Shown here: piece after piece, positions 5,077 to 63,911 of the stretch
How the letters are laid out: each line of letters starts with the position of its first letter
Numbering within the stretch: the first letter of the stretch is position 1
Source: Bacillota bacterium
Lineage (GTDB): Bacteria > Bacillota > JAAYKD01
Assembly (NCBI GenBank): GCA_012522585.1
Contig: JAAYKD010000157.1
Coordinates: 20,074 to 84,073 of the forward strand
Reading direction: 5' to 3'
Length of the DNA: 64,000 nt
Position numbers and translations under genes: made by a program
The notes under the pieces: generated by a model
Seen by the model: the letters and a program-made list of their open reading frames with translations, nothing else
The model's database searches: none
What the model was told of the DNA's origin: nothing

Positions 5077-5466
5077 ATGAGAATTTGTTTTTCCGGTCCT
5101 ATAGTAGCTGGCAGAGGTTTGGGCAAGACGGTTGAAATGCCCACTGTGAATATAGATTGGCAGGCTGAACAGCCTGAAGTTTTGCCTTCCCACGGAGTTT
5201 ACCTGAGTGAAATAACCATTCACAATCAAAAACACTATGGGCTCAGCAATTTTGGATTGAGGCCAACTGTTGACGCTGAAGATAGAGTTACCTTGGAAAC
5301 TTACCTTTTTCAATATATAGAAGGCCCCTTAGGTCAAAGGGCAGAAGTTTGCTTGCTGGAATTCATTCGCCCAACTAAAGCCTTTGCCTCTTTGCAAGAA
5401 GTAAAAGACCAAGTTGATCTTGATCTGCTCAGGGCTAAAGAGTTGATTGAAAAATCTAAAGCTTAG
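5077..5466 (+). CDS. Monofunctional riboflavin kinase (RibF C-terminal domain only)
   Basis: 129 aa with a GRGLGKT...PTVN motif resembling the RFK signature GRGxG...PTAN. No FAD synthetase domain is present. Confidence 0.55.
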   Translation: MRICFSGPIVAGRGLGKTVEMPTVNIDWQAEQPEVLPSHGVYLSEITIHNQKHYGLSNFGLRPTVDAEDRVTLETYLFQYIEGPLGQRAEVCLLEFIRPTKAFASLQEVKDQVDLDLLRAKELIEKSKA

Positions 5467-5539: not shown

Positions 5540-5778
5540 CTCATTTATGGGTTGTAACGGCCAGAATTCGGTCGGTCTCTAAAGCGTTGACCTCGGGCCT
5601 CGTACGACGTTGCCCTGTGAACCTCGTCAGGATCGGAAGATAGCAGCGATAAGCAGTCCGCGCGGGTGATACGAGTCGTCTGAGTGAGTTTTCTTGCACT
5701 GACACGGTCTGAGCCCTACAACTTGAGATGGAGCTTTAATATTTTATTGAAGAAGCCGATGTATCATCGGCTTTTTTT
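5540..5778 (+). ncRNA. ffs: Signal recognition particle RNA (scRNA/ffs, long Firmicutes type), ending in an intrinsic terminator at 5752-5778
   Basis: A domain IV-like motif (GUGAACCuCGUCAGGauCGGAAGauAGCAGC) is present. The 5' segment (GGGUUGUAacGGCCAG) pairs with the 3' segment (CUGAGCCCUACAAC). Its position immediately upstream of dnaX matches B. subtilis. A hairpin (aagccgatgtatcatcggcttttttt) follows. Confidence 0.7.
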
Positions 5779-9505: not shown

Positions 9506-10093
9506 ATGGATATAAGATCTAATTTAGTGCCCATGGTTGTAGAACAAACCAGTCGTGGTGAGAGAGCCTACGATATTTTTTCCCGCATGTTAAAAGATAG
9601 AATTGTCTTTTTAAACGGTGAAATAAACATGTATAGTGTCAATCTTTTGATTGCTCAGCTTTTATTTTTGGAAGCTGAGGATCCAGAGAAGGACATAAAT
9701 ATTTATATCAATTCGCCAGGTGGGGAAGTATATTCCGGCATGGCCCTCTACGATACCATTCAATATATTAAAGCGCCTGTTAACACCATTTGTGTGGGTT
9801 TGGCAGCCTCTATGGCAGCGGTTATACTGGCTTCCGGTCAAAAACGCTTGGCCTTACCCCATTCTCGAATTATGATTCATCAGCCTTTGGGCGGAGCTTC
9901 CGGCCAGGCAGCTGATATTCAGATTCAGGCCGAGGAAATTTTACGAGTGCGCAATATGCTCAACGAAGTCTTGGTCAAACACACAGGCCAATCTTTGGAA
10001 GTTATCGAAAAGAGAACCGACAGAGATAATTATTTCTCAGCTGAAGAAGCTAAAGAGTTTGGCTTAATCGATGAGGTTTTTGGCAAACGCTAA
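9506..10093 (+). CDS. clpP: ATP-dependent Clp protease proteolytic subunit
   Basis: Catalytic Ser (GLAASMAA), His (MIHQP) and Asp (RDNYFSA) are all present, with strong overall similarity to ClpP. Confidence 0.9.
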
Positions 10094-10127
10094 CTCAATG
10101 AAGTATAGGGAATGCACAGCATTCGTC

Positions 10128-10173
10128 AAGACAGGTCTGGCCTATCACTAAAGGGATAGGCCAGACCTGTCCC
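10128..10173 (+). terminator. Intrinsic terminator after clpP (17-bp perfect stem)
   Basis: gacaggtctggcctatc-actaaagg-gataggccagacctgtc, followed by a U-rich tail. Confidence 0.6.
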
Positions 10174-10449
10174 TTTATCCTCATTGCAGTCGTATTTCGT
10201 GTTAATGGACTTGCTATATCTCCTTGTAGTCGTGTTTCACTCTAGTGAAATAGTAAAGTTGATCGTTGTTTTATTATAGTAACAAGCTAGTGAGTTCTTA
10301 TGATTCCCTTCGTCTTATTGTAGCTGTATTTTAAGCAAGTAAAACAAAAAGGTCACAAGATCATGGTGCTGCAGCTACTCATGATTCCCTTTCGCTGATG
10401 GGAAAGTCACTTGCACAAAAAACAAAGGTTAAAAAATATAATATAGTTT

Positions 10450-10487
10450 GAGCAGAAGTTTTTAAAAACTTCTGCTCGTTTTTTTGA
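10450..10487 (+). terminator. Intrinsic terminator inside the 750-bp non-coding region
   Basis: Hairpin agcagaagt-ttttaaaa-acttctgct followed by cgttttttt. Confidence 0.65.
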
Positions 10488-10841
10488 ATTCAAAATATAT
10501 TATCTGATTGTTGCGAAACTCAAATTTTTGATTTAGCCTTGGTTTTTCCGATTACAAAATCCGGATTTTATTTAAGATGAGCCAGTGCTTTTTATAGAAC
10601 AAGCTACTCTTCTTTTAGTAAATTATTCGTGGCAAAGCTTAAAATAATTGAGCCGAAGCAAAAGTTTAAACATTTTGGTTTTGAATAGATTTTTTAAAAA
10701 TTCAACTCTCTTTCCTTTGGCTTTTCTAATTTTGGAAAAAATATCCTGAGTAAAGATAAAAACCAGGGAGAGTTTAAAGGATTTCAGCTTGAAAATAGGG
10801 AATAAAGGCAGAGAATAAAAGTTAAATTAGGAGGATCAACC

Positions 10842-11597
10842 ATGCATAAAAGATTACAGAAATTGAGAATCGGTCCAACCTTTATTGAATACACAAAATA
10901 CCAACATCAATTGGAACATAGCGATCAAATGCAATTTTTACCTCAGCCAGAGCTGACGGATCCAACCCCAACGGATTTACCTCTTTTCGATTTACCCAAG
11001 CCGGATCAATTGAACATCGGAGAAATTGATTTGACTAAGGCGATTAATCAAAGGGTCAGTGTGCGTAAATATACTGATCAAAAATTCAGTTTAGAAGAAT
11101 TGTCCTATTTACTTTGGACGACTCAGGGTATCAGAGAAATAACCGACCGACCGGCAACTTTGAGAACGGTTCCCTCAGCAGGCTCAAGGCATTCTTTTGA
11201 GACCTACCTTCTGATCAACCGAGTTGAAACTCTCAAGCCGGGCCTTTACAAATACTGTGCTTTGGATCATAAATTGGCTTTGCTCAGTGACGCCCCCAGT
11301 TTAGCGGACGAACTGACCGACATCTGTCATCGTCAGGGCATGGTGCGAAATTCCGCAGTCACGTTTTTCTGGGCTGCCGAAATTTACAGAAATGTCTGGC
11401 GCTATCAGGAAAGAGCTTATCGTTATGTTCACCTTGATGCCGGCCATGTCTGTCAAAATCTTTATTTAGCCTGCGAAGCCATAGCTTCAGGTTGTTGCGG
11501 CATTGCAGCTTTCGACGATGACCGGCTCAGTGAAGTTCTTCAAATCGATGGGGTCAATCGTTTCCCTGTCTATGTAGCCACTGTTGGTAAAAAATAA
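10842..11597 (+). CDS. SagB/ThcOx-type dehydrogenase (nitroreductase superfamily), with no partner genes nearby
   Basis: SagB-type dehydrogenase motif RTVPSAGSRHSFETYL (P-S-A-G-x-x-x-x-x-E-x-Y) in a 251-aa nitroreductase-fold protein. A good RBS (AGGAGG) precedes the start. Confidence 0.6.
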   Translation: MHKRLQKLRIGPTFIEYTKYQHQLEHSDQMQFLPQPELTDPTPTDLPLFDLPKPDQLNIGEIDLTKAINQRVSVRKYTDQKFSLEELSYLLWTTQGIREITDRPATLRTVPSAGSRHSFETYLLINRVETLKPGLYKYCALDHKLALLSDAPSLADELTDICHRQGMVRNSAVTFFWAAEIYRNVWRYQERAYRYVHLDAGHVCQNLYLACEAIASGCCGIAAFDDDRLSEVLQIDGVNRFPVYVATVGKK

Positions 11598-11794
11598 GAA
11601 TTTGAACCTAAGCTAGAAGCTGGATCATAAATTATTCTAGAGTTTTCCAGGCAGTTCATTTACTTATTAGTTGAGAATCTATTAAGCCTTGAAGTCTTAG
11701 AGAATTAATAGTTGTTTGTTATATTCCCAGATCTTGCACTTACTAGCCTAGGAAGAAACATCTATTTAGAAAATAATTACAAGGAATGTAAAAA

Positions 11795-20477: not shown

Positions 20478-20760
20478 TTGACAGTACAAATTGAAGTTGT
20501 TATAATTTTCTGTAAAGCGATGAAGAGAAGAGTAAATTGATTTAAGGGAAACAGAGAGCCCTCTGAGCTGAGAAAGGGCCGAATTGATCAATTGAAGATG
20601 GCCTCTGAGCAGCAAGGGTGAATATTTAACCCTTGACGGGTGCGACCGTTATATCGTTTTGTTCATAATTATGTAACAAATAAAGGATGCTTTAGCATTG
20701 AACAAGGGTGGTACCGCGGCTTCTCGCCCCTTTTGAGGGTTGGAAGCCTATTTTTATTTT
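20478..20760 (+). promoter_or_regulatory. Promoter (TTGACA-18 nt-TATAAT) plus a T-box riboswitch leader for metS, with an AUG specifier codon
   Basis: T-box motif aacaAGGGTGGTACCGCG at 20701-20718. A candidate specifier sits in gaagAUGGcc, and a U-run precedes the RBS. Confidence 0.85.
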
Positions 20761-20775
20761 TAAGGAGATGATTTC

Positions 20776-22782
20776 ATGAGCAAAACTTATTATCTTACTA
20801 CGCCCATATATTACACCAGTGGTTCTCCTCATGTGGGCCATGCCTATTGTTCGATTATGGCTGACACTTTGGCCAGATTCCATCGATTGATTGGAGACGA
20901 AGTTTTTTTCTTGACCGGGACAGATGAGCATGGTCAAAAGGTCGAGGAGAAAGCTCAGGAAAGTGGAAAATCCCCTCAGGATTATGTCGACACTATAGAT
21001 CTTGAATTCAAAGCTTTGTGGAAAAAGCTGGGTATTTCCTATGATGCTTATATCAGAACGACAGACCAGAAGCATAAGCTGGCGGTGCAAAAAATATTCT
21101 TGAAACTATATGAGCAGGGAGACATTTATAAAAAGGATTATGAAGGTCATTATTGTGTACCCTGCGAGGCTTATTGGACAGATCATCAATTGGATGAGGA
21201 AAAGAATTGTCCCGATTGTGGTCGTCAGGTCATCTGGTTGAAAGAAGAGAGTTATTTTTTCAAAGCTTCAAAATATGCCGATCGTTTGATAGAACATATT
21301 GAAACCAATCCAAAATTCATCCAACCTGTCTCCAGGGCCAATGAGATGATGAATAATTTTCTCAAGCCAGGCCTTCAGGATATCTCTGTGACCAGAACAA
21401 GTGTGGACTGGGGTATTCCTGTTCCTTTTGATCCGGAACATAAAATCTATGTTTGGATCGATGCACTACCCAATTATATTACGGCTCTGGGCTATACAGA
21501 CGAGCACGATCAATTGATGCAAAAATTCTGGCCCGCCGACCTTCATCTAGTGGGCAAAGAGATAATTCGTTTTCATACCATCATCTGGCCGATCATCTTG
21601 ATGGCCTTAGATTTGCCCTTGCCTAAACAGATTTTCGGCCATGGTTGGTTGCTTTTTGATAACGATAAAATGTCAAAATCTAAAGGCAATGTAGTCGACC
21701 CCGTTGAGCTTATCGATCAGTATGGCAGTGATGCTCTCAGACATTATCTTTTGTCCAAGGTGCCTGTTGGCAATGATGGTAATTTTACTATTGACCTTTT
21801 TAAACAGAGCTATAATACGGATTTGGCCAATGATCTAGGCAATCTCTTGAGCAGAACTGTTGCCATGCAAGAGCGTTATTTTCAAGGTGTCGTGCAAAAT
21901 TGTCAAGAGCTGACCGAGGAAGACAGGTCCATGTCAGAATTGGCCAGAAAGACTCCTGAAATAGTTTTGTCGGCCATGCTGGTCAATGATTTCAATAAAG
22001 CTTTAGCCGCTATTTGGCGCTTAATCGATCGTAGCAATAAATACATCGATGAAAATGAGCCCTGGGTTTTAGCCAGAAGCGAGGATAAAAGGGAAAGATT
22101 AGGCACTGTCCTCTATTATTTGTCTGAAAACTTGAGATATATCGGTGTCTTGTTGCAGCCCTTTATGCCGGAAACCACGCCAAAAATCTTCCGCCAATTG
22201 GGTTTGATGGGGCGGACACCTTTACAGACTTGGCAATCTTTAGAAACTTACGGTCGCTTGCCTCAAGGTACAGTCATGGTCAAAGAAGAAGCCTTGTTTC
22301 CCCGAATTGATTTAAAGAATAAAAAAGCTGAACAGAATGACCGAGCCAAAGCCCAAGCCGGAAAGAAAAAAGAGAAAGATAAAGGAGCTGCCCAAAAGAT
22401 GGAAACAGAAAAGCAAGAAGTAGAAACAGAAAATATTTTGCCCGAATTAAAGCCTCAGATAACCATCGATGACTTTGCCAAAGTAGATTTTCGCATAGCC
22501 GAAATCATAGCTTGTGAGAGAGTGCCCAAAGCCGATAGATTGTTAAAGCTGACAGTAAAAATTGGTGAAACTTCCAGAACAATAGTCTCCGGCATAGCCG
22601 AACACTATACGCCGGAAGAATTAGTGGGTAAGCAAGTTTGTGTCGTGGTCAATTTGGCCCCTCATGTTTTCCGCGGAATTAAATCGGAAGGTATGCTATT
22701 GGCAGCTTCTGATGACAAGGATAGCAAGATCATTATTTTGGAGCCGGAAAAAAGAGCAGAAAGCGGCTGGAAGGTGAGATAA
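20776..22782 (+). CDS. metG: Methionyl-tRNA synthetase with a C-terminal EMAP-like tRNA-binding domain
   Basis: HIGH motif (SPHVGHAY), KMSKS, and a Zn knuckle (CVPCEAY...CPDCG). Confidence 0.95.
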   Translation: MSKTYYLTTPIYYTSGSPHVGHAYCSIMADTLARFHRLIGDEVFFLTGTDEHGQKVEEKAQESGKSPQDYVDTIDLEFKALWKKLGISYDAYIRTTDQKHKLAVQKIFLKLYEQGDIYKKDYEGHYCVPCEAYWTDHQLDEEKNCPDCGRQVIWLKEESYFFKASKYADRLIEHIETNPKFIQPVSRANEMMNNFLKPGLQDISVTRTSVDWGIPVPFDPEHKIYVWIDALPNYITALGYTDEHDQLMQKFWPADLHLVGKEIIRFHTIIWPIILMALDLPLPKQIFGHGWLLFDNDKMSKSKGNVVDPVELIDQYGSDALRHYLLSKVPVGNDGNFTIDLFKQSYNTDLANDLGNLLSRTVAMQERYFQGVVQNCQELTEEDRSMSELARKTPEIVLSAMLVNDFNKALAAIWRLIDRSNKYIDENEPWVLARSEDKRERLGTVLYYLSENLRYIGVLLQPFMPETTPKIFRQLGLMGRTPLQTWQSLETYGRLPQGTVMVKEEALFPRIDLKNKKAEQNDRAKAQAGKKKEKDKGAAQKMETEKQEVETENILPELKPQITIDDFAKVDFRIAEIIACERVPKADRLLKLTVKIGETSRTIVSGIAEHYTPEELVGKQVCVVVNLAPHVFRGIKSEGMLLAASDDKDSKIIILEPEKRAESGWKVR

Positions 22783-39878: not shown

Positions 39879-39953
39879 TCCACAATAGCTCAACGGTAGA
39901 GCAACCGGCTGTTAACCGGTAGGCTGTAGGTTCGAATCCTACTTGTGGAGCCA
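39879..39953 (+). tRNA. tRNA-Asn (GTT)
   Basis: Cloverleaf with a 7-bp acceptor stem (tccacaa/ttgtgga), anticodon loop cuGUUaa, and a CCA end. Confidence 0.9.
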
Positions 39954-39992
39954 GCGATCATGAGGTTTTTTAACCTTTGATATATTAAGGAC

Positions 39993-40069
39993 GGGCCCAT
40001 AGCTCAGTTGGTCAGAGCCACCGGCTCATAACCGGTTAGTCCTAGGTTCGAGTCCTAGTGGGCCCACCA
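39993..40069 (+). tRNA. tRNA with a CAT anticodon; elongator Met or Ile2 (lysidine), with the loop CUCAUAA favouring Ile2
   Basis: gggccca acceptor stem, anticodon loop ctCATaa, TΨC loop GGTTCGAGTCC, CCA end. Confidence 0.85.
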
Positions 40070-40102
40070 ATAATGAATTGGACCGTCCATGAAAAAGATA
40101 AT

Positions 40103-40177
40103 GGCCCCATAGTGAAGCGGTTAACACACCAGCCTTTCACGCTGGCGACGTGGGTTCGAATCCCACTGGGGTCACCA
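40103..40177 (+). tRNA. tRNA-Glu (TTC)
   Basis: Anticodon loop cuUUCac; GGTTCGAATCC T-loop; CCA end. Confidence 0.9.
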
Positions 40178-41168: not shown

Positions 41169-41197
41169 ATTATAATAATAGTCCAAACAGAAGAAAA

Positions 41198-41562
41198 TGG
41201 GTTAGTTGGGTGATCGCGGGGAGAATATCGAAAGATGCTCTCTGAGGAAAGTCCGAGCTTCGCAGAGCAGGATGCTGGATAACGTCCAGTGAGGGTAACC
41301 TTAAGGATAGTGCCACAGAAATAAACCGCCTAAAATTTTTAGGTAAGGGTGCAAAGGTGCGGTAAGAGCGCACCAGCAATCGGGCGACCGCTTGGCTAGG
41401 TAAACCCCATCCGAAGCAAGACCGAATAGGGAAGGGATGAAGTTGCTCGCTGATCTTCCGGGTAGGTTGCTGGATATTTTGGGCAATCAAAATACAAGAT
41501 AAATGATCACCTCGTGCTTTTTTAGGCATAGGACAGAACTCGGCTTACAGACTAACCCCTTT
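41198..41562 (+). ncRNA. rnpB: RNase P RNA (rnpB), bacterial type-A-like
   Basis: P4 halves GGAAAGUCCGAGC and ACAGAAcuCGGCUUA are present, along with the conserved GGUGCGGUAAGAGCGCACCAG and AGUGCCACAGAAA. P1 pairs gggttagt (5') with actaaccc (3'). Confidence 0.85.
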
Positions 41563-41629
41563 CTTTTCTTTGTCTGGAACACAGATTTTTAGAACTTTTT
41601 ACTAAAAACAAATTTTCTTCAAATATTAT

Positions 41630-41671: not shown

Positions 41672-41747
41672 TGGGGCATCGCCAAGTTGGTAAGGCACGG
41701 GACTTTGACTCCCGTATGCGTTGGTTCGAGTCCAGCTGCCCCAACCA
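41672..41747 (+). tRNA. tRNA-Gln (TTG)
   Basis: Anticodon loop cuUUGac, acceptor uggggca/ugcccca, CCA end. Confidence 0.9.
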
Positions 41748-41768
41748 GCTTTTCTTTTTGTCAATTAT

Positions 41769-41844
<76 letters not shown>

Positions 41845-44019: not shown

Positions 44020-44094
44020 GGCCCCATAGTGAAGCGGTTAACACACCAGCCTTTCACGCTGGCGACGTGGGTTCGAATCCCACTGGGGTCACCA
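44020..44094 (+). tRNA. tRNA-Glu (TTC), identical second copy
   Basis: Sequence is identical to 40103-40177. Confidence 0.9.
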
Positions 44095-44099
44095 TATAC

Positions 44100-44185
44100 G
44101 GTGGGATACCCAAGTTGGCCAAAGGGGGCAGACTGTAAATCTGCTAGCACTGCTTTCGCTGGTTCGAATCCAGCTCCCACCACCA
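44100..44185 (+). tRNA. tRNA-Tyr (GTA) with a long variable arm
   Basis: Anticodon loop cuGUAaa, long variable arm (ctgctagcactgctttcgc), CCA end. Confidence 0.9.
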
Positions 44186-47020: not shown

Positions 47021-47601
47021 GCTTTTATTCGTTTTTTTTGAATCTGATTTCTTTCTTTCTGAAAATATTCTGGCGGCCTAATTTTCAGGGTCAGGAAAAC
47101 ATACCTGATCAAGGTGCAGTTATTCTCTGTGCCAATCATCTCAATGCCAAGGACCCTTTCTTCATCGCTATGGGCTTACCCAGAAAAATTCGGTTTTTGG
47201 CTAAGGAGGAATTATTTCGCAATAGGATCTTGCGTTTTATCCTCTTGAAAAGTGAAATGATTCCGGTCAAACGGGGCCAAACAGACAGAACAGCAGTGCG
47301 TTCGGTTCTAAATTCTTTAAAGGCCCAAGAGATGGTTGGAATTTTCCCTGAAGGGACACGCTCAGATGGTCTGGAGATGAAAGGCTTCCACGAAGGAGCT
47401 GTTTATTTTGCTCAAAAAACAGGTGCCCCTCTTTTACCGGCGGCGATTATCGGCGACTATTCCCTTTTCAAACCGATCGAGATAGTCTACGGTCAAATTA
47501 TCGAAGTGGAAAAAGAGACCAGAGCCCAAAGAGCAGAGATGCAGAGGATTAACGAAAAATTAAAAACAGAAATTGAAAAATTGCGGGGAATTAATCTATG
47601 A
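47011..47601 (+). CDS. plsC: 1-acyl-sn-glycerol-3-phosphate acyltransferase
   Basis: HX4D-type motif ANHLNAKDP and FPEGTRS. Confidence 0.85.
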   Translation: MPMSFYSFFLNLISFFLKIFWRPNFQGQENIPDQGAVILCANHLNAKDPFFIAMGLPRKIRFLAKEELFRNRILRFILLKSEMIPVKRGQTDRTAVRSVLNSLKAQEMVGIFPEGTRSDGLEMKGFHEGAVYFAQKTGAPLLPAAIIGDYSLFKPIEIVYGQIIEVEKETRAQRAEMQRINEKLKTEIEKLRGINL

Positions 47602-49925
47602 AAATTATCAGAGCAGACCATATGGGTTTTTGCGGAGGAGTCAGGCGAGCCATCTTGATGGCGGAAGCTGAGTTGGCCAAACAAGGGGAATTAAATGTCT
47701 TAGGCTCCCTGGTGCACAATCCTCGTCTGATCGATCAATTGACTCAAAAAGGATTGAATACACTGGAATCCTTGGAAGAACTCGGGGCAGAGGAAAAAGT
47801 GATGATCAGAGCTCACGGAACCGGCCCCAGCGTCTATGCCAAACTTTCAGAAAAATCAGTGGAAATTCTCGATGCAACTTGTCCCAGTGTAAAAAAGATC
47901 TTTGCCTTAGCTGAGGATTATTCTCAAAAAGGTTATAGAATATTAATCATCGGAGAAAAAGAACACCCGGAAGTTGAGGCAATAAAAGAATGGGCGGGGG
48001 ACAGAGGAGTCATTCTTGAAACTGAAGAAGATTTAAAAAACTTGGAAAAAAACGAAAAAGTTGCCGTTATTTGTCAATCAACCCTGGCTCAAGAAGATTT
48101 TGATAGATTTCTTTCTATTATTAGAAGGATTTTTCCCGTCCATGTCGTATTTAATACTATATGTTCAGCGACCAGAGTTAGGCAGGACGCTGCAGTAGCC
48201 GTGGCCAAGCAAGTCGACCTTATGTTGGTAGTGGGCAGCCAACAAAGTGCAAACACAAGGCATCTATACGATTTGTGCATCCAGGTTAACAAAAACACAT
48301 TTTTGGTCGGTGGTGCCGCCGATTTGCAGGCTGAATGGTTTGATAGAGCGAAAGTTGTTGGGCTTACAGCCGGAGCATCCGCTCCGGACTGGATAATTAA
48401 GGAGGTAGAAAATAACGTGTTGGAAAAAGAACTCAAAGTCAACGAAACAGAAAAGGAAGAATCTGTAGAAGTTGAAGATCAAGAAGCCGCAGAAGTTGTT
48501 GCTGAAGGTGACGAAACTGTCGAAGTTGAAGCTCAAGAAGAAGTAGAAGCTGAAGCAGAAGTAGAAGAGCAAGAAGAAACAACCGAACCTGTGGAAGAAG
48601 TGGAAGAAACCACGGAAGAGCCGGCCACGGAGCCCGAAGAATTTGATATGGATTCATTCCATCTGCCCCGTTATAACCCGGGTGATATTATTCAAGCTAC
48701 GGTTGTACAGGTGGGTAACGATGAAGTTTTGGTGGATGTGGGGCAAAAGTCCGAAGGTGTCATTCCGCGCAGAGAGTTTTCCGCCGATTCATCTATTCTG
48801 CCTACCGATGTTTTAAATGTTGGAGATGTTATTACCGTAATGGTAATTCGCAGCGAAGACCAAGAAGGTCGACTGACTTTCTCCAAAAGAAGAGCAGACC
48901 AGCATCAGCATTGGATCGAATTTGGTGAATCCCTAGATAAAAACGAGATTTTAGAAGGTAAAGTTCTGGAAACTGTCAAGGGCGGATTGATTGTTGATAT
49001 CGGTGTAAGGGCATTCATGCCAGCTTCTTTGTCGGAGCTACGCTTCACCAGTGATTTGAAACATTTGGTTGGCCAGACCGTCAGGGTTCATCTGATTGAA
49101 TTGGAACCGGAAAAAAGACGAGCAATTGTCAATCGCAAGAGCGTTTTAGAAGAAGAAGCTAAAGAAAAAAGAGAAGCTTTTTGGGCTAATACGGTTGAAG
49201 GCGATGTTGTCCATGGTATCGTTCGTCGCATCACAAAATTCGGTGCTTTTGTCGATTTAGGCGGAGTTGATGGTTTGCTTCATATTTCCGATTTGGAGTA
49301 TTTCCGGGTCAACGATCCCTCTGATGTAGTCAGCATTGACGAAGAGCTGGATTTAAAAGTTTTAAAACTCGATCCCGAATCAGGGCGTATTTCCTTAGGT
49401 TTGAAACAAATGAAAATGGAACCATGGGAAGCTTTTGCTCAGGATCACGCAGCCGATGAAGAAATTCAAGGAACTGTAGTCAGAATTACTCCTTGGGGAG
49501 CATTTGTCAATGTTCGTCCGGGTATTGATGGTCTGATTCATATTTCCGAGTTGACCGACTATCGAGTCGAAAAAGTCGAAGATGTAGTCAATGTAGGTCA
49601 AGAAGTGACTGCGAAAATTTTAGACATTGACCTGGTTAGAAAACGTTTGAGCTTATCTTTGCGCGCTATGCTCTATACAGAAGAGTATGAAGATGACTAC
49701 GAAGATGAGTATGAAGACGATTATGAAGAAGAATACGAAGAAGAGTATGATGAAAATGTTCAGGTAGCCTATGATGACGGTGGCGGAACAGGGCTCTTGG
49801 AAGAAGTAGCTGGATTAGAGCAATTAGCCGAATCATTGGAAGCTGCAGCTTCTGAAGAAGCCGAAGAAGTGGAAGAATCAGAAGAAACCGAAGTAGAGCC
49901 TGAAGAAGATCCTGAACTGAATTAA
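47598..49925 (+). CDS. ispH-rpsA: Bifunctional IspH (HMBPP reductase, LytB) fused to ribosomal protein S1 (four S1 domains), with polyacidic linker and tail
   Basis: N-terminal ~280 aa are IspH (Fe-S Cys in HMGFCGGV, ATCPSV, NTICSAT). Four S1 repeats follow. The linker and C-terminal tail are strongly acidic, rich in glutamate and aspartate. Confidence 0.85.
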   Translation: MKIIRADHMGFCGGVRRAILMAEAELAKQGELNVLGSLVHNPRLIDQLTQKGLNTLESLEELGAEEKVMIRAHGTGPSVYAKLSEKSVEILDATCPSVKKIFALAEDYSQKGYRILIIGEKEHPEVEAIKEWAGDRGVILETEEDLKNLEKNEKVAVICQSTLAQEDFDRFLSIIRRIFPVHVVFNTICSATRVRQDAAVAVAKQVDLMLVVGSQQSANTRHLYDLCIQVNKNTFLVGGAADLQAEWFDRAKVVGLTAGASAPDWIIKEVENNVLEKELKVNETEKEESVEVEDQEAAEVVAEGDETVEVEAQEEVEAEAEVEEQEETTEPVEEVEETTEEPATEPEEFDMDSFHLPRYNPGDIIQATVVQVGNDEVLVDVGQKSEGVIPRREFSADSSILPTDVLNVGDVITVMVIRSEDQEGRLTFSKRRADQHQHWIEFGESLDKNEILEGKVLETVKGGLIVDIGVRAFMPASLSELRFTSDLKHLVGQTVRVHLIELEPEKRRAIVNRKSVLEEEAKEKREAFWANTVEGDVVHGIVRRITKFGAFVDLGGVDGLLHISDLEYFRVNDPSDVVSIDEELDLKVLKLDPESGRISLGLKQMKMEPWEAFAQDHAADEEIQGTVVRITPWGAFVNVRPGIDGLIHISELTDYRVEKVEDVVNVGQEVTAKILDIDLVRKRLSLSLRAMLYTEEYEDDYEDEYEDDYEEEYEEEYDENVQVAYDDGGGTGLLEEVAGLEQLAESLEAAASEEAEEVEESEETEVEPEEDPELN

Positions 49926-52412: not shown

Positions 52413-52690
52413 TTGACAAAGAGAATCAACTAGACTTATAATGGTGGAAATCAAAAACAGTGCAATGATAAAGAAAAACTTCAAGTGAAAAGCTTTGCAG
52501 AGAGGGTTTGTTGGTGGAAAAACTCAAGTTGAGCTTGAAGAGGCCGCTTTTGAGCATTTTGTGTTCAAACACAAACGGAAGCACTCCGATATCAGCAGAA
52601 TGAGATCGAAATTTTCATTTCGATGAATCAGGGTGGTACCACGAATATTTCGTCCCTGAGCCAAAGGGCTCGGGGATTTTTTTATTATGG
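52413..52690 (+). promoter_or_regulatory. Promoter (TTGACA-17 nt-TATAAT) plus a T-box riboswitch leader for alaS, with a probable GCC/GCU specifier
   Basis: T-box aatcAGGGTGGTACCACG at 52626-52643. Terminator ccctgagcc-aaag-ggctcgggg followed by attttttt. Confidence 0.85.
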
Positions 52691-52701: not shown

Positions 52702-55323
52702 ATGAGAAATATGAGCGGAAATGAAATTCGCCAGGAATTCCTAGATTTTTTTGAGAAAAAAGGTCATCTGATTATGCCCAGCGCATCCTTAGTGCCTCAA
52801 AATGACCCCAGCTTGCTCCTCGTCGGAGCAGGCATGGCACCCTTCAAGGCATATTTTACCGGCACGGCTCAGCCTCCGGCTAAAAGAATTGCCACCTCGC
52901 AAAAATGTATTCGCACTCCGGACATTGAAAGGGTAGGAAAAACAGCCCGCCACGCTACCTTCTTTGAAATGTTAGGCAATTTTTCCTTTGGCGATTATTT
53001 TAAAAAGGACGCTATTTTTTGGGCTTGGGAATTTCTGACTGATGTCATTGAAATGGACCCTCAGCGCCTCTATATTACTGTCCATCAAGATGATCAAGAA
53101 GCCTATGACATCTGGCATCAGGAAGTGGGCATACCGGCTGAACGCATTTATTTAGGCGATGATGAAGAAAACTTCTGGGAGATTGGAGTGGGTCCTAGCG
53201 GCCCTTGCTCGGAAATCTTTTATGATCAAGGGGAGGAGTATTCCTGTGGCGATACCTGTCAAATGGGTTGTGATTGTGATCGTTATCTGGAAGTTTGGAA
53301 TCTAGTCTTTACCCAATACGATAAGGATGAGGATGGAAATTATAACCCCCTGGAGCGCAAGAGCATCGATACGGGCATGGGCTTAGATCGCTTAGCTGCA
53401 GTTGTTCAGGGGAAATCCTCCATTTTTGAAATAGATTTAAATTACCCGATGCTTGAGCGCTTAATTGAGTTGAGCAAGATTGACTACGATGGTCAATCGA
53501 AAGAGAGTTTAGCCGCTCGAGTTATCATCGACCATATCAAAGGAGTAACCTTCTTGATCGCTGACGGTGTGCTGCCGGCTAATGAGGGCAGAGGATATGT
53601 CCTGCGCCGTCTCTTGAGAAGAGCTATCCGCAATGGCCGTCTGATTGGTCTGAACCAGCCCTTCACTCAGGAAATTGCCAAAGAAGTTATTAAGTCCTTT
53701 AGCGTTGGTTATCCTGATCTATTGGAAAAAGAGGAATTCATCCTGCAGCTCTTGGCTTTAGAGGAAAAACGCTTCAACGAAACATTGGAGGCCGGTTTGA
53801 ATCTAGTCCAGCAATTTTTAACTAAAATGTGGGAGCAAAAAGAAAAGACTTTAGCAGGTGAAGCTGCTTTCAGGCTCCATGATACCTTTGGTTTTCCCTT
53901 GGAATTGACCCAGGAAATTTTAGCCGAATCAGGTTTTTCCCTGGACATTGAAGGATTCAAAAAAGAGATGGAAAAACAGAGGCAAAGAGCCCGAGCCGCA
54001 CGCAGTCAGGTGGATGCCATGGGCAGCCAGCGTTTGGATACCAGCGGTGTTTTAAGCCTGTTCAGAGGCTATGAGGTCCTGGAAGAAAGCTGTCGAGTTG
54101 AAGCTATCTATCTCCAAGGAGAAAAAGTAGATGAAGCCAAAGCAACTCAGCAGGTTAAATTAGTTTTAAACCCCAATCCTTTTTATGGAGAGAGCGGTGG
54201 TCAGGTGGGGGATATTGGTTCTCTGCTCAAAAATGATCTGGAGTCCTTTGTTTCTGATACGGAAAGCATCGATGAAGTTCAAGTTTTACAGGTGGAATTA
54301 GCCTTCGACCTTGTTGTCGGAGAGGAAATAATTGCTAAGGTTGATGCTCAAAGAAGAGCAGCCATCGCAAGACACCACTCAGCCACCCATCTTTTGCACA
54401 AAGCCCTCAGCCTTATCTTAGGAGACCATGTTCATCAAGCAGGTTCCTGGGTTGGCCCGGATCGCCTGCGCTTTGACTTCAGCCACTTTAATTCGATTAG
54501 TGCTGAAGAGTTGAAACAAATCGAAGACCTAGTCAACAGATGGATCATGGAAAATCACCCGGTCTTAGCTGAAGAAATGACCTTGGATCAAGCTAAGGAA
54601 CAGCATGTGACTGCTCTCTTTGGTGAAAAATATAGTGATATAGTCAGAGTTGTAAAAATGGGGGAATCCCAAGAATTGTGCGGAGGCACTCATGTCAGAG
54701 CGACCGGAGAAATAGGACCCTTTAAAATTCTTTCCGAAGCCAGTATAGGTTCAGGAGTAAGACGGATCGAAGCCTTGGCTGGTTTTCAAACCTTGGATTA
54801 TTATGCCGGCAAAGAAGAGCTCTTGCTGGAGATTTCTGCTTTGACCAAGAGCAAAGAAGAGGATATTATCAGACGCATTCAGTCTTTGCAGGAACAAGTC
54901 AAAGAGCAGGAAAGACAATTAGCCAGTCTGAGCGCTCAAAACACTATGAGTCAAATCGATAATCTGATCAGTCAAAAGATCAAAATCAACGGGGTGGATG
55001 TTCTGGCCCTTGAAATTGAGGCGGATAAAACTGATGATTTGCGCCATATGGCCGATCTTCTCAGGGATAAAATGGGCAGTGGCATTGTCGTCTTGGGTTC
55101 CAACATCGAAGGCAAAGCCAGCCTCTTGGCAGCTGCGACCAAGGATCTGAAAGATCTGTTCCATGCAGGAAATCTGATCAGAGAAGCCGCTAAACTGGTC
55201 GGTGGCGGAGGAGGCGGACGTCCCGACTTAGCTCAAGCCGGAGGCCCCAGCCCAGAAAAATTAAAAGCAGCTCTGCCTCAAATAATCGAAATGATCAAAG
55301 AACAAATGAAAGAAAAGAATTGA
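52702..55323 (+). CDS. alaS: Alanyl-tRNA synthetase
   Basis: 873 aa with the class II catalytic core, the editing domain HxxxH...CxxxH (HSATHLLH...CGGTH), and a C-terminal DHHA1 domain with GGGGG. Confidence 0.95.
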   Translation: MRNMSGNEIRQEFLDFFEKKGHLIMPSASLVPQNDPSLLLVGAGMAPFKAYFTGTAQPPAKRIATSQKCIRTPDIERVGKTARHATFFEMLGNFSFGDYFKKDAIFWAWEFLTDVIEMDPQRLYITVHQDDQEAYDIWHQEVGIPAERIYLGDDEENFWEIGVGPSGPCSEIFYDQGEEYSCGDTCQMGCDCDRYLEVWNLVFTQYDKDEDGNYNPLERKSIDTGMGLDRLAAVVQGKSSIFEIDLNYPMLERLIELSKIDYDGQSKESLAARVIIDHIKGVTFLIADGVLPANEGRGYVLRRLLRRAIRNGRLIGLNQPFTQEIAKEVIKSFSVGYPDLLEKEEFILQLLALEEKRFNETLEAGLNLVQQFLTKMWEQKEKTLAGEAAFRLHDTFGFPLELTQEILAESGFSLDIEGFKKEMEKQRQRARAARSQVDAMGSQRLDTSGVLSLFRGYEVLEESCRVEAIYLQGEKVDEAKATQQVKLVLNPNPFYGESGGQVGDIGSLLKNDLESFVSDTESIDEVQVLQVELAFDLVVGEEIIAKVDAQRRAAIARHHSATHLLHKALSLILGDHVHQAGSWVGPDRLRFDFSHFNSISAEELKQIEDLVNRWIMENHPVLAEEMTLDQAKEQHVTALFGEKYSDIVRVVKMGESQELCGGTHVRATGEIGPFKILSEASIGSGVRRIEALAGFQTLDYYAGKEELLLEISALTKSKEEDIIRRIQSLQEQVKEQERQLASLSAQNTMSQIDNLISQKIKINGVDVLALEIEADKTDDLRHMADLLRDKMGSGIVVLGSNIEGKASLLAAATKDLKDLFHAGNLIREAAKLVGGGGGGRPDLAQAGGPSPEKLKAALPQIIEMIKEQMKEKN

Positions 55324-60502: not shown

Positions 60503-60790
60503 TTGCCAGATAGCCGAAATTATGATATTCTCGTTAACAAAGCGATGACTGAGAAAAGTATTGTAAAATTGAACTAAACAGGGAGATTGGCCTTGGATTG
60601 AAAGCCATGATAGGAAAATTTGCAAGAAGTTCATCTCAAGAGCTGTTTAGCTGAAAGATCAAAAAGAGTAAGCTAAGCCGTGAAAACTGCGTTAAAGTTT
60701 AAATGAGAAATTGATCTTTATCAATGAATCAAGGGTGGTACCGCGAAGACTTCGCCCCTTATGGGCAGGAGTCTTTTTTATTTTTCATTT
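60503..60790 (+). promoter_or_regulatory. T-box riboswitch leader for pheS-pheT, with a probable UUC specifier
   Basis: T-box aatcAAGGGTGGTACCGCG at 60727-60745. A U-run precedes the RBS GGAGG, and a candidate specifier sits in gaagUUCauc. Confidence 0.8.
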
Positions 60791-60801
60791 GGAGGTTTAA
60801 A

Positions 60802-61830
60802 ATGCTGCAAAATTTGGATGATTTAAGAAATGAGGCCCTAAAAGCCATCGACCAAGGGAATAGCCCTGAGGCTTTAAACGATTTAAGGGTGAAATACTTG
60901 GGCAAAAATGGTGAGCTAACCCTGCTTTTGCGTCAAACAGGCAAATTGCCTGCTGAACAGCGGCCGGCCTTTGGCCAAAAAGCCAACACCATTCGAGCTC
61001 AAATAGAAAATTTAATCAACGAGAAGAGAGAAGAGTTGATTAAAGTCCAGCAAGAGAAAAAAATTCAAGAAGAAAAAATTGATTTAAGCTTGCCCGGTTA
61101 TCGCCTGAGAAAAGGCTCAATGCATCCTATCACAATGGTCTTGGATGAAATCAAGGACATTTTTATTGGCTTGGGTTTTAGCGTTGTTGAAGGCCCGGAA
61201 ATTGAAACCGATTATTATGATTTTCAGGCTCTCAATATTCCCTTAGACCATCCGGCCAGAGAGATGCAGGATACCTTTTATCTAAGTGAAGATTTGCTTT
61301 TGCGCACTCATACATCACCGATGCAGGCTCGAACCATGGAAGCCCAGGCGCCTCAATTGCCGATTAAAATAATAGTGCCGGGCAAAGTCTACCGGCGAGA
61401 CGAAGATGCTACTCACACTCCGATGTTTCATCAGGTTGAGGGGCTTTTAGTCGACGAAAGAGTTTCCCTATCCCATCTCAAGGGGATACTCCTTTCCTTT
61501 GCTCAGCAGATGTTTGGGCAAGACAGAGAGATTCGCCTAAGACCCTCTTTCTTTCCCTTTACAGAGCCCAGTGTTGAAGTCGATATTTCCTGTTTTGCCT
61601 GTGGGGGCAGCGGCTGTCGACTCTGTAAAGGCACGGGCTGGATTGAAATTCTAGGAGCCGGCATGGTTCATCCAAATGTTTTGAGGATGAGCGGTTACAA
61701 CCCCCAAGAAGCCAGCGGCTTGGCTTTTGGTATGGGTGTGGAAAGAATTGCTATGCTTAAATACGGCATCGACGATTTACGCCATCTTTTCCAAAACGAC
61801 CTGCGCTTTTTACGCCAATTTGAAAATTAG
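60802..61830 (+). CDS. pheS: Phenylalanyl-tRNA synthetase alpha subunit
   Basis: Class II motifs and the FPFTEPS motif. GGAGG RBS before ATG 60802; the track ORF (60724) reads through the T-box. Confidence 0.93.
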
Positions 61831-61841
61831 GAGGATTAGCT

Positions 61842-63911
61842 ATGAAAATTTTATACAGTTGGTTAAAAGAATTAGTGCCTGATTTGAAAGCTGATGCTCA
61901 AACTGTTGCCACGGCCTTGACTGATGCTGGAGTAGAAGTTGACGGTTTGGTAGAATTGCCCGACCAGGAATATGTAATCGAGCTTGATTTGACTCCAAAT
62001 AGATCTGACTGTCTATCCATGTGGGGCTTGGCCTACGAAGTGGCAGCTATTTTTGGTTTGAAAGCAGAACTGCCCCAAGACGAAGAACTCCCCATTCTAG
62101 TCGATGCAAATAAAATTCAATTGGCAGCGCCTCAGCTCTGCCCCTACTATTTAGGCTTGATTTTAGAGGATGTCAAGATCGGACCTTCCCCTGACTGGTT
62201 GGTCAAACGCTTAGAAGCTTTGGGCATGCGAGGCATCAACAATATAGTCGATATTACCAATTATGTTATGTTAGAAACCGGCCAGCCCTTACACGCTTTC
62301 GATTACGATTGTTTAGTCGACCATAAGATCGTGGTCAGAGAATCAAAAGAAGATGAAGAGATAATCACCCTGGACAATCAATTGAGAAAACCTGAAGCTG
62401 GGACCATCTATATTTGTGACCCGGAAAAGGCCATCGGTATTGGCGGTGTGATGGGTGGGCTGAACAGCGAAACCACTGAACAGACAAAGAATATCTTCTT
62501 CGAAGCAGCTTATTTTGACCGTCGTTCCATTAGAAGAACGGCCAAAGCCTTGGATTTACGCAGTGAAGCGGCCCTTCGTTTTGAAAAAGGTGTTGACCCC
62601 TCAGGTCTCTACAAAGCTTTGCAACGGGTTTATTATTACAGCCAACTTTTGAAGATTGGTCAGCCGCAAAAAGAGATCCTCTCAGGAAGCACCTATGCAC
62701 CTCAAGCTGATCGCCAGATTCTCTTGTCAAGAAAGTATTTGGATGAAAGAATCGGCATGAGTTTTAGCGACCAGCAAGTAGAGGAGTCCTTGCAAAATCT
62801 CGGGTTTGCCTTAAGCCCAACTGAATCAGGTTGGCAGGTTGGTGTTCCCTCCCGTCGCCAGGATGTCCAAGAAGAAGTGGATTTGACTGAAGAAGTCTCA
62901 AGACTTGTTGGCTTGGACCAGCTACCGGCAGTTTTGCCGGAAGGGGCGTCAACCCAAGGCGGCTTGAATAAAGAACAGAAATTATTGCAAAAGGTCCATA
63001 GAGTTTTAAATAAAAGAGGCCTCAATGAAGCCTTGAACTATTCTTTTATTTCTAAAAAGGAATTGAAGGATGTTTTTCAAGATGAAAATCATCCTTTGCT
63101 GCAGGCGATTCCCTTGAAAAACCCGATGACTGAGGCTCAGGAAATCATGCGGACCAGCTTGTTGCCCGGTTTGTTAAAAAATCTGCGGGATAATCAGAAC
63201 AGACAGAATTTGGATATAGGTCTTTACGAAATCGGGCGGATTTATCTACCTGAGCAATTACCTTTGAGAGATCTGCCCAGTGAAGAGCTTCACTTAGGTG
63301 TAGCCTTGACAGGAAGCAGCCAGGCCTTAGGCTGGCAATTGGCTAAAGAACCATACGATTTTTACCATCTGAAAGGGATTTTAGAAGATCTAATGTCGGT
63401 TTTGGGCTGGCCCCTTGCTCTCAAAGAAAAGCAGGATGATCCTCGTTTTCATCCCTATCAATGTGCCGAAATTCTCTTCAATGGTCGAGCTATTGGAATT
63501 ATGGGAGCCATTCACCCGGATCTAGCCGAGAATTGGGATTTAAATCAAAAAGCTTTCCTGGCCGAGTTGAATCTGGACCTAGTCTTGAAGCTGGCCGATC
63601 CCAAGATAAATTACAAACCATTGTCCAGATACCAATCGAGTAAAAGGGATTTGGCTTTGGTGGTTGAAAACAGTATCAGTGCCCAGGCTGTCCTGGCAAC
63701 CATAAAATTGGCGGCAGGGGATTTATTGGAAAATGTTGAGCTCTTTGATGTCTATAGAGGCAGTCAGATCAAAGCAGGCCATAAGAGTTTAGCCTTTTCT
63801 TTGACCTATCGGGCCCAGGACAGAACTTTAACAGATGCTGAAGTAGCCAAGGCTCATAATGAAATTTTGCAATTTTTAAATGATTATTATCAATCAGAAT
63901 TAAGACAGTAA
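61842..63911 (+). CDS. pheT: Phenylalanyl-tRNA synthetase beta subunit, short form lacking the N-terminal EMAP/OB tRNA-binding insert
   Basis: 689 aa, against the typical ~800. B3/4, B5 and FDX-ACB domains are present. The sequence runs directly from MKILYSWLKELV... into ...IELDLTPNRSDCLSMWGLAYEVAA. Confidence 0.9.
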   Translation: MKILYSWLKELVPDLKADAQTVATALTDAGVEVDGLVELPDQEYVIELDLTPNRSDCLSMWGLAYEVAAIFGLKAELPQDEELPILVDANKIQLAAPQLCPYYLGLILEDVKIGPSPDWLVKRLEALGMRGINNIVDITNYVMLETGQPLHAFDYDCLVDHKIVVRESKEDEEIITLDNQLRKPEAGTIYICDPEKAIGIGGVMGGLNSETTEQTKNIFFEAAYFDRRSIRRTAKALDLRSEAALRFEKGVDPSGLYKALQRVYYYSQLLKIGQPQKEILSGSTYAPQADRQILLSRKYLDERIGMSFSDQQVEESLQNLGFALSPTESGWQVGVPSRRQDVQEEVDLTEEVSRLVGLDQLPAVLPEGASTQGGLNKEQKLLQKVHRVLNKRGLNEALNYSFISKKELKDVFQDENHPLLQAIPLKNPMTEAQEIMRTSLLPGLLKNLRDNQNRQNLDIGLYEIGRIYLPEQLPLRDLPSEELHLGVALTGSSQALGWQLAKEPYDFYHLKGILEDLMSVLGWPLALKEKQDDPRFHPYQCAEILFNGRAIGIMGAIHPDLAENWDLNQKAFLAELNLDLVLKLADPKINYKPLSRYQSSKRDLALVVENSISAQAVLATIKLAAGDLLENVELFDVYRGSQIKAGHKSLAFSLTYRAQDRTLTDAEVAKAHNEILQFLNDYYQSELRQ

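Follow-up and report, generated by a model that had tools for sequence, protein, structure and literature searches.

The SagB-like gene and its protein

The subject of this analysis is a stand-alone SagB-like gene of the nitroreductase fold, located on the plus strand at 10842..11597 of a 64,000-nucleotide stretch of the Bacillota contig JAAYKD010000157.1 (the whole stretch is referred to below as the window). An earlier note, made from the sequence, had described it as an orphan SagB/ThcOx-type dehydrogenase lacking cyclodehydratase partners, with an implied link to a thiazole/oxazole peptide pathway, of the type known as thiazole/oxazole-modified microcin (TOMM) pathways. The open reading frame (ORF) is genuine: according to the ORF list and the sequence it starts with ATG, encodes 251 aa and includes its stop codon within these coordinates, and a Shine-Dalgarno sequence, AGGAGG, can be read directly from the sequence 7 nt 5′ of the start codon (10829..10834, plus strand). 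A consensus scan also reported a weak sigma-70-like promoter candidate (TTGAAA-16-GAGAAT, agreeing at 9 of 12 positions; 10789..10816, plus strand), where the seven sigma-70-like matches near the gene were no clear excess over the shuffled mean of 4.5 (sd 2.0). The identical protein has already been deposited, named by NCBI and JGI as "MAG: SagB/ThcOx family dehydrogenase [Firmicutes bacterium]" (MAG, metagenome-assembled genome), and is present on at least 11 metagenome contigs, anaerobic-digester samples among them. Among the stand-alone SagB-like flavoenzymes, which form a very large family, the window gene is an ordinary member, already deposited and named.

The family assignment of the earlier note was confirmed by profile searches and by a structure model. 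The NCBIfam model TIGR03605 ("SagB family peptide dehydrogenase") matched the protein over its full length (model positions 1-173 of 173, protein residues 83-250) with 138.7 bits and an E-value of 1.3e-40, well above the curated cutoff of 78.4 bits, and Pfam PF00881 (Nitroreductase) matched residues 68-250 with 90.9 bits (cutoff 23.5). The first refutation that the note had named, a generic nitroreductase scoring below the TIGR03605 cutoff, can be set aside with this score. For TIGR04511 (SagB_rel_DH_2, putative peptide maturation dehydrogenase) the protein obtained 110 bits, below the cutoff of 240, and only model positions 173-368 of 380 were matched. The AlphaFold2 model of the protein had a mean predicted local distance difference test score (pLDDT) of 90.6 and a predicted template modelling score of 0.89, and Foldseek matched it with a probability of 1.00 to ThcOx, 3EO7, BF3017, BT_0217, BmdC and McbC. 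The best structural match was ThcOx, with a template modelling (TM) score of 0.81 normalised to our protein over approximately 263 aligned columns. The model has the alpha+beta nitroreductase fold with the residues of a predicted flavin mononucleotide (FMN) site. Taken together, PF00881, TIGR03605 and Foldseek delimit a nitroreductase/SagB-type FMN domain at residues 68-250 (11043..11591, plus strand); it is a SagB/ThcOx-type domain on the nitroreductase fold, and the match is far beyond chance.

The residues that precede the Pfam domain (residues 1-67; 10842..11042, plus strand) form a conserved N-terminal segment, as seen in an alignment of 40 family sequences, in homologue coverage and in pLDDT. 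This family alignment has a mean column identity of 60% and 54 invariant positions, eight of which fall within the N-terminal 60 residues (T18, K19, Q29, Q35, P36, L38, L51 and P52). The family consensus of the segment reads IGxEFMEKTKYxYLxxSDQxKGLPQPPL...IDLPxP, and in the model residues 11-60 have pLDDT values of 87-96. A 60-aa N-terminal extension had been considered atypical in the earlier note. Homologues are near full-length, and we regard the extension as a structured feature of the family because it contains invariant residues, is confidently modelled and takes part in a superposition of the whole chain on ThcOx.

Three sites characterize the predicted active site. The first is R71-x-S73-x-R75 (11052..11066, plus strand), predicted from its conservation and from the alignment with BmdC to bind FMN through its phosphate and through the N1/O2 edge of the flavin. 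These three residues are invariant or nearly invariant in the family alignment and, in the profile alignment, correspond to R145, S147 and R149 of BmdC, which touch FMN (phosphate, N1/O2) in the BmdC structure (PMC8795117). Q165, which adjoins the position of BmdC N236, is invariant as well. The second site is a clade signature, P111-S-A-G-S-R116-H117 (11172..11192, plus strand), identified in the family alignment and in alignments to ThcOx, 3EO7 and BmdC. P111, S112, G114, R116 and H117 are invariant among the 40 sequences, and in a wider sample of 164 domains from 150 representatives at 50% identity, position 116 is Arg in 111 domains and position 117 is His in 122. The SagB-type motif quoted in the earlier note, RTVPSAGSRHSFETYL, is indeed present, at residues 108-123, but it conforms only in part to the SagB type: where the clade has PSAGSRH, oxidases of TOMM and nonribosomal peptide synthetase (NRPS) systems, and also 3EO7, have PS(A/G)G-(A/G)LY or SAGGLYP, and the PSGGALY/SAGGLYP form is absent. 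A further clade-specific motif, DAGHxxQN, was evident in the family and HMMER alignments.

The third site is W186-R187-Y188 (11397..11405, plus strand), at the position of the Lys-Tyr pair of azoline dehydrogenases. In HMMER alignments F-W-K-Y of ThcOx and P-K-Y of BmdC (K259-Y260) fall exactly on these residues, such that the Tyr is kept and the Lys is replaced by Arg. W186-R187-Y188 is invariant in the family alignment; among the 164 domains, WRY is found in 95, WKY in 19, and Arg at position 187 in 110. In McbC, Lys201-Tyr202 lie over the C-alpha of the bound azole, and the Lys-activated Tyr takes the proton while the hydride passes to FMN N5 (PMC6395948). The Lys-Tyr motif is strongly conserved among TOMM dehydrogenases (PMC10557607), and BmdC employs the equivalent catalytic Tyr260 (PMC8795117). 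The protein encoded in the window thus lacks the Lys-Tyr pair of TOMM azoline dehydrogenases, as Y188 is present and the residue preceding it is R187. It carries every signature of a stand-alone clade of approximately 245-255 aa (TKY...SDQ...LPQP...LP, PSAGSRH, WRY and DAGHxxQN), all of them invariant or nearly so in the family alignment.

Genomic neighbourhood in the window and in related loci

Precomputed Pfam calls on conspecific contigs, which span approximately -6.4 to +8.4 kb around the gene, place it in a housekeeping region. Its 5′ side holds genes for a DinG-like helicase and a flavokinase-like protein, dnaX, ybaB, recR, a GNAT gene and clpP; its 3′ side holds a spoIIIAA-like/R3H ATPase gene, darA (CdAMP_rec), one unknown gene, holB, PSP1/yaaT, a methyltransferase gene, rsmI and tilS. 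The 20 largest remaining ORFs of the window likewise gave only housekeeping families by Pfam: LarA-like, ABC-F ATPase, Mur ligase, 7TM-HD protein, DnaG, sigma-70 factor, MATE transporter, HI0933-like flavoprotein, IspH-S1 fusion, Der, GpsA, Era and PhoH, and the aminoacyl-tRNA synthetases MetRS, AlaRS, a class-II enzyme, a Trp/TyrRS-type enzyme and PheS/PheT. No YcaO, E1/ThiF-like or TfuA protein was found among the window ORFs scanned by Pfam. A phmmer search with E. coli YcaO gave zero matches, even at E ≤ 10, among 8,671 stop-to-stop ORFs of the window and 89 loci; having one distant seed, this search is insensitive to divergent TOMM YcaOs, and it is backed by the Pfam scans and by neighbour clustering. 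The observation that no cyclodehydratase partner lies near the gene therefore extends, by the Pfam scans and the low-sensitivity phmmer search, to the whole 64 kb. We also followed the suggestion to look for precursor peptides in the gaps on both sides of the gene (10094-10841 and 11598-11794), and found no plausible candidate: no ORF of at least 20 aa in them has a Cys/Ser/Thr-rich core, and their small ORFs are short and hydrophobic and start mostly with TTG.

The neighbourhoods of relatives were compared in 80 related loci, taking all ORFs within 10 kb on each side and clustering them by all-vs-all BLASTP. No gene partner conserved across phyla was found in the 80 loci, and recurrent neighbours were lineage-specific only. 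A MurJ-like flippase gene lies directly upstream in 21 loci, essentially all of Anaerolineae, and the other recurrent clusters were generic ABC ATPases, a CYTH protein and DnaE. Several further apparent clusters turned out to be shadow ORFs lying antisense to the target gene or to murJ and were rejected. By eye we also noted an eIF2B-like isomerase (in Methanosarcinales), Map, DnaJ, HtrA and GatA. The 150 immediately flanking genes distribute over 171 Pfam families, led by MurJ (15 matches, all in Anaerolineae), MatE (13, which are probably the same MurJ proteins), GNAT (5) and Cdd1, ABC, CYTH and UvrD (4 each). No peptide-maturation family is among the recurrent families of these 150 genes, nor is a YcaO or E1-like gene among the recurrent neighbours within the 10-kb flanks. 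Such a scatter of families around the gene is unlike what is expected of a pathway-bound tailoring enzyme.

Relatives at 78% and 73% identity occupy the same slot between clpP and the spoIIIAA-like gene, amid housekeeping genes. In these relatives at 73-78% identity the slot contains two tandem SagB-like paralogues, of 245-246 aa and 252 aa (L087 5860-7371; L088 5826-7337; L091 5794-7302; L092 202-1710). The L087 paralogues share 64% identity, and in both L087 and L088 the alpha and beta subunits of a class-I fumarase come directly after the pair. The window lineage keeps only the second copy of the pair. This suggests that the paralogues of the relatives form heterodimers and that a gene was lost or replaced in the window lineage.

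These data bear directly on the proposal that the gene belongs to a thiazole/oxazole peptide pathway. In one form of it the enzyme would be a trans-acting azoline dehydrogenase (a TOMM B protein) oxidising thiazolines or oxazolines made by a YcaO cyclodehydratase whose gene lies elsewhere in the genome. The TIGR03605 match above cutoff, the azoline oxidase ThcOx as best structural match, and the retained catalytic Tyr, beside which Arg could stand in for Lys, speak for such a role. Against them stand the failure to find a YcaO gene, an E1-like gene or a precursor gene in the 64-kb window, or any such recurrent partner in the 80 loci of many phyla, the housekeeping synteny kept in relatives at 73-78% identity, and the invariant Arg in place of the Lys. 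In addition, ThcOx has two N-terminal peptide-clamp domains of the RiPP recognition element (RRE) type, residues 7-86 and 87-194 (PMC5108345), and both are absent from the protein encoded here; its sequence is much nearer to 3EO7 than to any TOMM or NRPS oxidase; its TIGR04511 score is below the cutoff; and an identity of 50-55% between bacteria and methanogens would be unusual for pathway-specific tailoring enzymes. We consider a trans-acting role very improbable. More generally, the description of the gene as a pathway orphan is not borne out: a link to a thiazole/oxazole peptide pathway is unsupported, because neighbourhood, synteny, domain architecture and active site, as four independent lines of evidence, are all contrary to it.

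The gap that separates clpP from the SagB-like gene (10094-10841, 748 bp) is AT-rich, non-coding and unusually long. The idea that it represents a decayed tandem paralogue was rejected, as neither tblastn nor blastn gave a remnant. A search for riboswitches and known RNAs in the gap gave no Rfam match at gathering thresholds, and only sub-threshold matches at chance level at E ≤ 5. Two strong terminator-like hairpins are found on the plus strand, one after clpP at 10130-10171 and one at 10449-10478, and the stretch 10175-10490 folds better than all but one of 100 shuffles (z -2.83). By this folding analysis the stretch may be a small RNA, or what is left of the 3′ end of a lost gene; the copies of it that are available are near-identical conspecific ones. 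One of these (L004 1221-2033) differs from the window by a 70-nt insertion right after the clpP stop codon and by substitutions clustered in the first approximately 330 nt, with few differences in the 400 nt nearest the SagB-like gene. In another conspecific contig (L002 5042-5648) clpP is called as two fragments of 94 and 93 aa, compared with the intact 195 aa at 9506-10093 of the window, which is a frameshift or assembly error in that contig.

It could be asked whether the gene itself is decaying or no longer functional, left over from the tandem pair and with no current role, given that the relatives at 73-78% identity hold two genes where the window has one gene and a 748-bp non-coding gap. 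This is the explanation we credit least: the ORF is intact with a strong ribosome-binding site, all family-invariant residues are retained, the contigs that carry the identical protein come from independent metagenomes, and most family members in other lineages are single-copy.

Several other features of the window were recorded. Rfam reported RNase P RNA, signal recognition particle (SRP) RNA, three T-box leaders and nine tRNAs. The T-box leaders (20511-20734, 52456-52660 and 60536-60762) precede metS (20776-22782), alaS (52702-55323) and pheS/pheT (60724-63911), respectively. The SRP RNA lies at 5591-5688 and the tRNA clusters at 39879-40174, 41672-41841 and 44020-44182. The RNase P RNA, of class A (311.6 bits; 41198-41563, plus strand), is overlapped by a 119-aa minus-strand ORF (41170-41529) that is almost certainly spurious. 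A 775-aa ORF at 47598-49925 joins IspH/LytB to four S1 RNA-binding domains, as in ispH-rpsA-type fusions. A 129-aa ORF at 5077-5466, approximately 5.4 kb 5′ of the SagB-like gene, matches the Flavokinase domain (that of riboflavin kinase, which produces FMN); it is separated from the gene by the SRP RNA, dnaX, ybaB, recR, the GNAT gene and clpP, and its proximity to a gene for an FMN-dependent protein is probably a coincidence. Nearly all window genes are on the plus strand and the GC skew is positive in every 2-kb bin. Because of this strand bias, the skew and the gene order dnaX-recR...holB...metS, the window fits a leading-strand, origin-proximal housekeeping segment of a Bacillota chromosome, in this case a MAG.

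Family distribution and proposed function

Homologues of the protein are numerous. A word-indexed search gave at least 7,781 homologues among 8,000 scored candidates. Each of the best 120 consists of a single domain, is 236-279 aa long and matches 94-100% of the query (approximately 96%) at 54-80% identity. An exhaustive search of 50%-identity representatives gave 12,122 clusters at E ≤ 1e-3, of which 408 reached E ≤ 1e-30. With one genome per species, at least 574 relatives were confirmed among the 600 pattern matches listed, and the best 80 of these share 48-62% identity with the protein and come from many groups. They include Bacillota (Schnuerera, Wukongibacter, Tissierella, Pelosinus and Halanaerobiales), Anaerolineae (Leptolinea, Levilinea and Longilinea), methanogens (Methanothrix, Methanoregula, Methanolobus and Methanomethylovorans), Bathyarchaeia, Thermotogae, Atribacterota, Caldisericota, Zixibacteria and one Planctomycetaceae MAG. 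Judged from their names, the carriers are predominantly anaerobes, and an identity of approximately 50% is kept between Clostridia, Anaerolineae and methanogens.

Domain fusions provide further clues. Fused two-domain forms are found in 3EO7 and, among the 50%-identity representatives, in P0131, P0132, P0156 and others, and together with the tandem paralogues they suggest that heterodimeric or pseudo-dimeric versions of the enzyme are common. In one relative (P0195) the SagB-like domain is joined to Fer4_20 and Pyr_redox_2, a GltD-like NAD(P)H/Fe-S electron-input module; in another (P0269) an N-terminal cytochrome P450 is fused to it, and in a third (P0137) it occurs with DUF3471. Many relatives of approximately 350 aa have 100-125 N-terminal residues (approximate lengths) with no Pfam match.

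In the literature we found no functional definition of the stand-alone SagB-like clade of approximately 250 aa, whose members PGAP names "SagB/ThcOx family dehydrogenase", and stand-alone "SagB-type" or "SagB-like" proteins appeared in genome-mining mentions only. The remark in the earlier note that stand-alone homologues are functionally uncharacterised agrees with this, as no experimental work on the exact clade was found.

The reading we prefer, with a probability of roughly 70%, is that the gene product is a solitary FMN-dependent oxidoreductase that forms homodimers and belongs to a very large stand-alone SagB-like clade, with no TOMM role and with a non-TOMM, probably small-molecule, substrate. 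By analogy with the nitroreductase fold, for which a homodimer with FMN sites at the interface is general (PMC10404671, PMC8795117), the protein would form a homodimer with two FMN sites at its interface. Packed over the core, the conserved N-terminal segment would probably contribute to forming or closing the substrate pocket. Hydride would pass between FMN N5 and the substrate, a small molecule or another non-TOMM compound, and Tyr188, polarised by Arg187, may act as a proton relay in this transfer. The clade-specific basic and polar residues R116, H117, R187 and H202 suggest, at the level of sequence, that the substrate may be anionic or polar.

As for the direction of the reaction, reduction (from a reduced donor through FMN to the substrate) seems more likely than O2-dependent dehydrogenation. 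We lean towards it for three reasons. The predominantly anaerobic carriers would be without O2 for recycling FMNH2. SagB1, a purified stand-alone enzyme of the SagB subgroup that came out of a functional metagenomic screen, reduces metronidazole in vivo (PMC10055417), and the Foldseek matches BF3017 and BT_0217 are deposited as FMN-dependent nitroreductases. Finally, P0195 is fused to the GltD-like module and P0269 to a cytochrome P450.

The main rival is that the enzyme is a dedicated dehydrogenase or desaturase for one non-peptide or small-peptide metabolite and not a reductase, catalysing an alpha,beta-dehydrogenation like that of cyclodipeptide oxidase or of NRPS Ox domains, with the hydride passing through FMN to an anaerobic acceptor. 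Tyr188 beside a basic residue recalls McbC, BmdC and ThcOx, where the Tyr takes the C-alpha proton, and dehydrogenation is the known chemistry of the SagB-related branch of this fold as a whole (PMC10557607). The many strictly conserved polar residues of the active site suggest a single defined substrate, and the tandem paralogues and two-domain forms such as 3EO7 suggest specialised (pseudo)heterodimers. Yet the carriers, mainly anaerobes, have no O2 with which to reoxidise FMNH2, the 150 flanking genes of the 80 loci include no linked gene for an acceptor or a substrate pathway, the relative P0195 is fused to an electron-input module, and nitro-reduction has been demonstrated for a stand-alone SagB-subgroup enzyme (PMC10055417). 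On balance we hold a dedicated dehydrogenase to be unlikely, at several times the chance given to the trans-acting TOMM role.

The solitary, non-TOMM oxidoreductase that we favour also has several points weighing against it. The catalytic Tyr is retained and the exchange of Lys for Arg is conservative, which, judged from the residues, is compatible with C-H abstraction as carried out by dehydrogenases. Conservation is very high even between domains of life, and this points to a single specific substrate and not to promiscuous detoxification. The fusion evidence comes from single cluster representatives, the YcaO search of related loci was insensitive, and no demonstrated activity was found in the literature searched for any member of the exact clade. 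Finally, the stand-alone enzymes for which nitroreductase activity has been shown or annotated (SagB1, BT_0217 and BF3017) are smaller proteins and distant relatives (E ~1e-13). A more specific version, which we put forward tentatively and would not yet call probable, is that the W-R-Y/PSAGSRH/DAGH clade is a distinct, widely shared and anaerobe-centred enzyme with one specific substrate, neither an azoline oxidase nor a promiscuous nitroreductase, for which P0195 hints at ferredoxin or GltD-like proteins as possible electron donors. If true, the window gene would be an ordinary representative of a biologically important enzyme family.

For genome mining, a TIGR03605/SagB match by itself is no sign of a thiazole/oxazole peptide pathway, as thousands of stand-alone homologues occur with no cyclodehydratase. 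The clade can be separated from azoline dehydrogenases by Arg-Tyr in place of Lys-Tyr, by PSAGSRH and DAGH, by a short N-terminal segment in place of RRE domains, and by the lack of conserved neighbours. The window gene carries little weight alone; the family is sizeable, strongly conserved and found mainly in anaerobes (methanogens, Clostridia, Anaerolineae), and knowing its substrate would bring a modest yet real improvement to the annotation of anaerobic-digester and sediment metagenomes.

Comparison with known systems

Homologues of TOMM B proteins include many non-TOMM relatives, and hence mining for TOMM pathways has been anchored on YcaO (PMC4603692). The best structural match of our protein is ThcOx/CyaGox (PDB 5LQ4, 8PZ5), the cyanobactin azoline oxidase, which shares the FMN nitroreductase fold, the position of the active-site Tyr and the RxSxR motif. 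The two are only 22% identical (E 3e-14; 2.4e-24 with a profile). ThcOx has W-K-Y where our protein has Arg-Tyr, sits in a cyanobactin cluster with a YcaO heterocyclase, and carries the RRE/peptide-clamp domains for which the 251-aa protein has no equivalent. McbC of the microcin B17 synthetase and BmdC, the oxidase of the bacillamide NRPS, are also alike in fold, and McbC Y202 and BmdC Y260 align with Y188. Their sequence relationship is remote (profile E 6.6e-07 for McbC and 2e-16 for BmdC), both have Lys before the Tyr, and both form stable complexes with a cyclodehydratase or an NRPS whose genes adjoin theirs.

BF3017 (3HOI), BT_0217 (8CQS) and the metagenomic SagB1 resemble our protein in that they are FMN proteins of the SagB-related branch that stand alone and have no cyclodehydratase, and these small enzymes match its model with TM scores of 0.65-0.66, normalised to our protein. 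They are shorter, approximately 187-202 aa (SagB1 187; BT_0217 and BF3017 approximately 193), and do not have the conserved 60-aa N-terminal segment. The N-acyl-tyrosine desaturases of the TyzC/OxzB type were considered as an analogy and dropped, as they belong to the separate FDO/Acg subgroup (PMC10404671).

The nearest solved structure by sequence is 3EO7 (Ava_2154 of Anabaena variabilis, a structural-genomics entry annotated as a putative nitroreductase), with an E-value of 1.8e-37, or 1.4e-55 with a profile. It has PSAGGLYP where the window clade has PSAGSRH, and its 511 aa comprise two fused SagB-like halves, which make up a pseudo-dimer whose second half is degenerate (AQY, no PSAG), whereas our protein is a single 251-aa domain. 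Like our protein, 3EO7 stands outside any described TOMM cluster, and its first half carries the same W-R-Y and xDxGH motifs.

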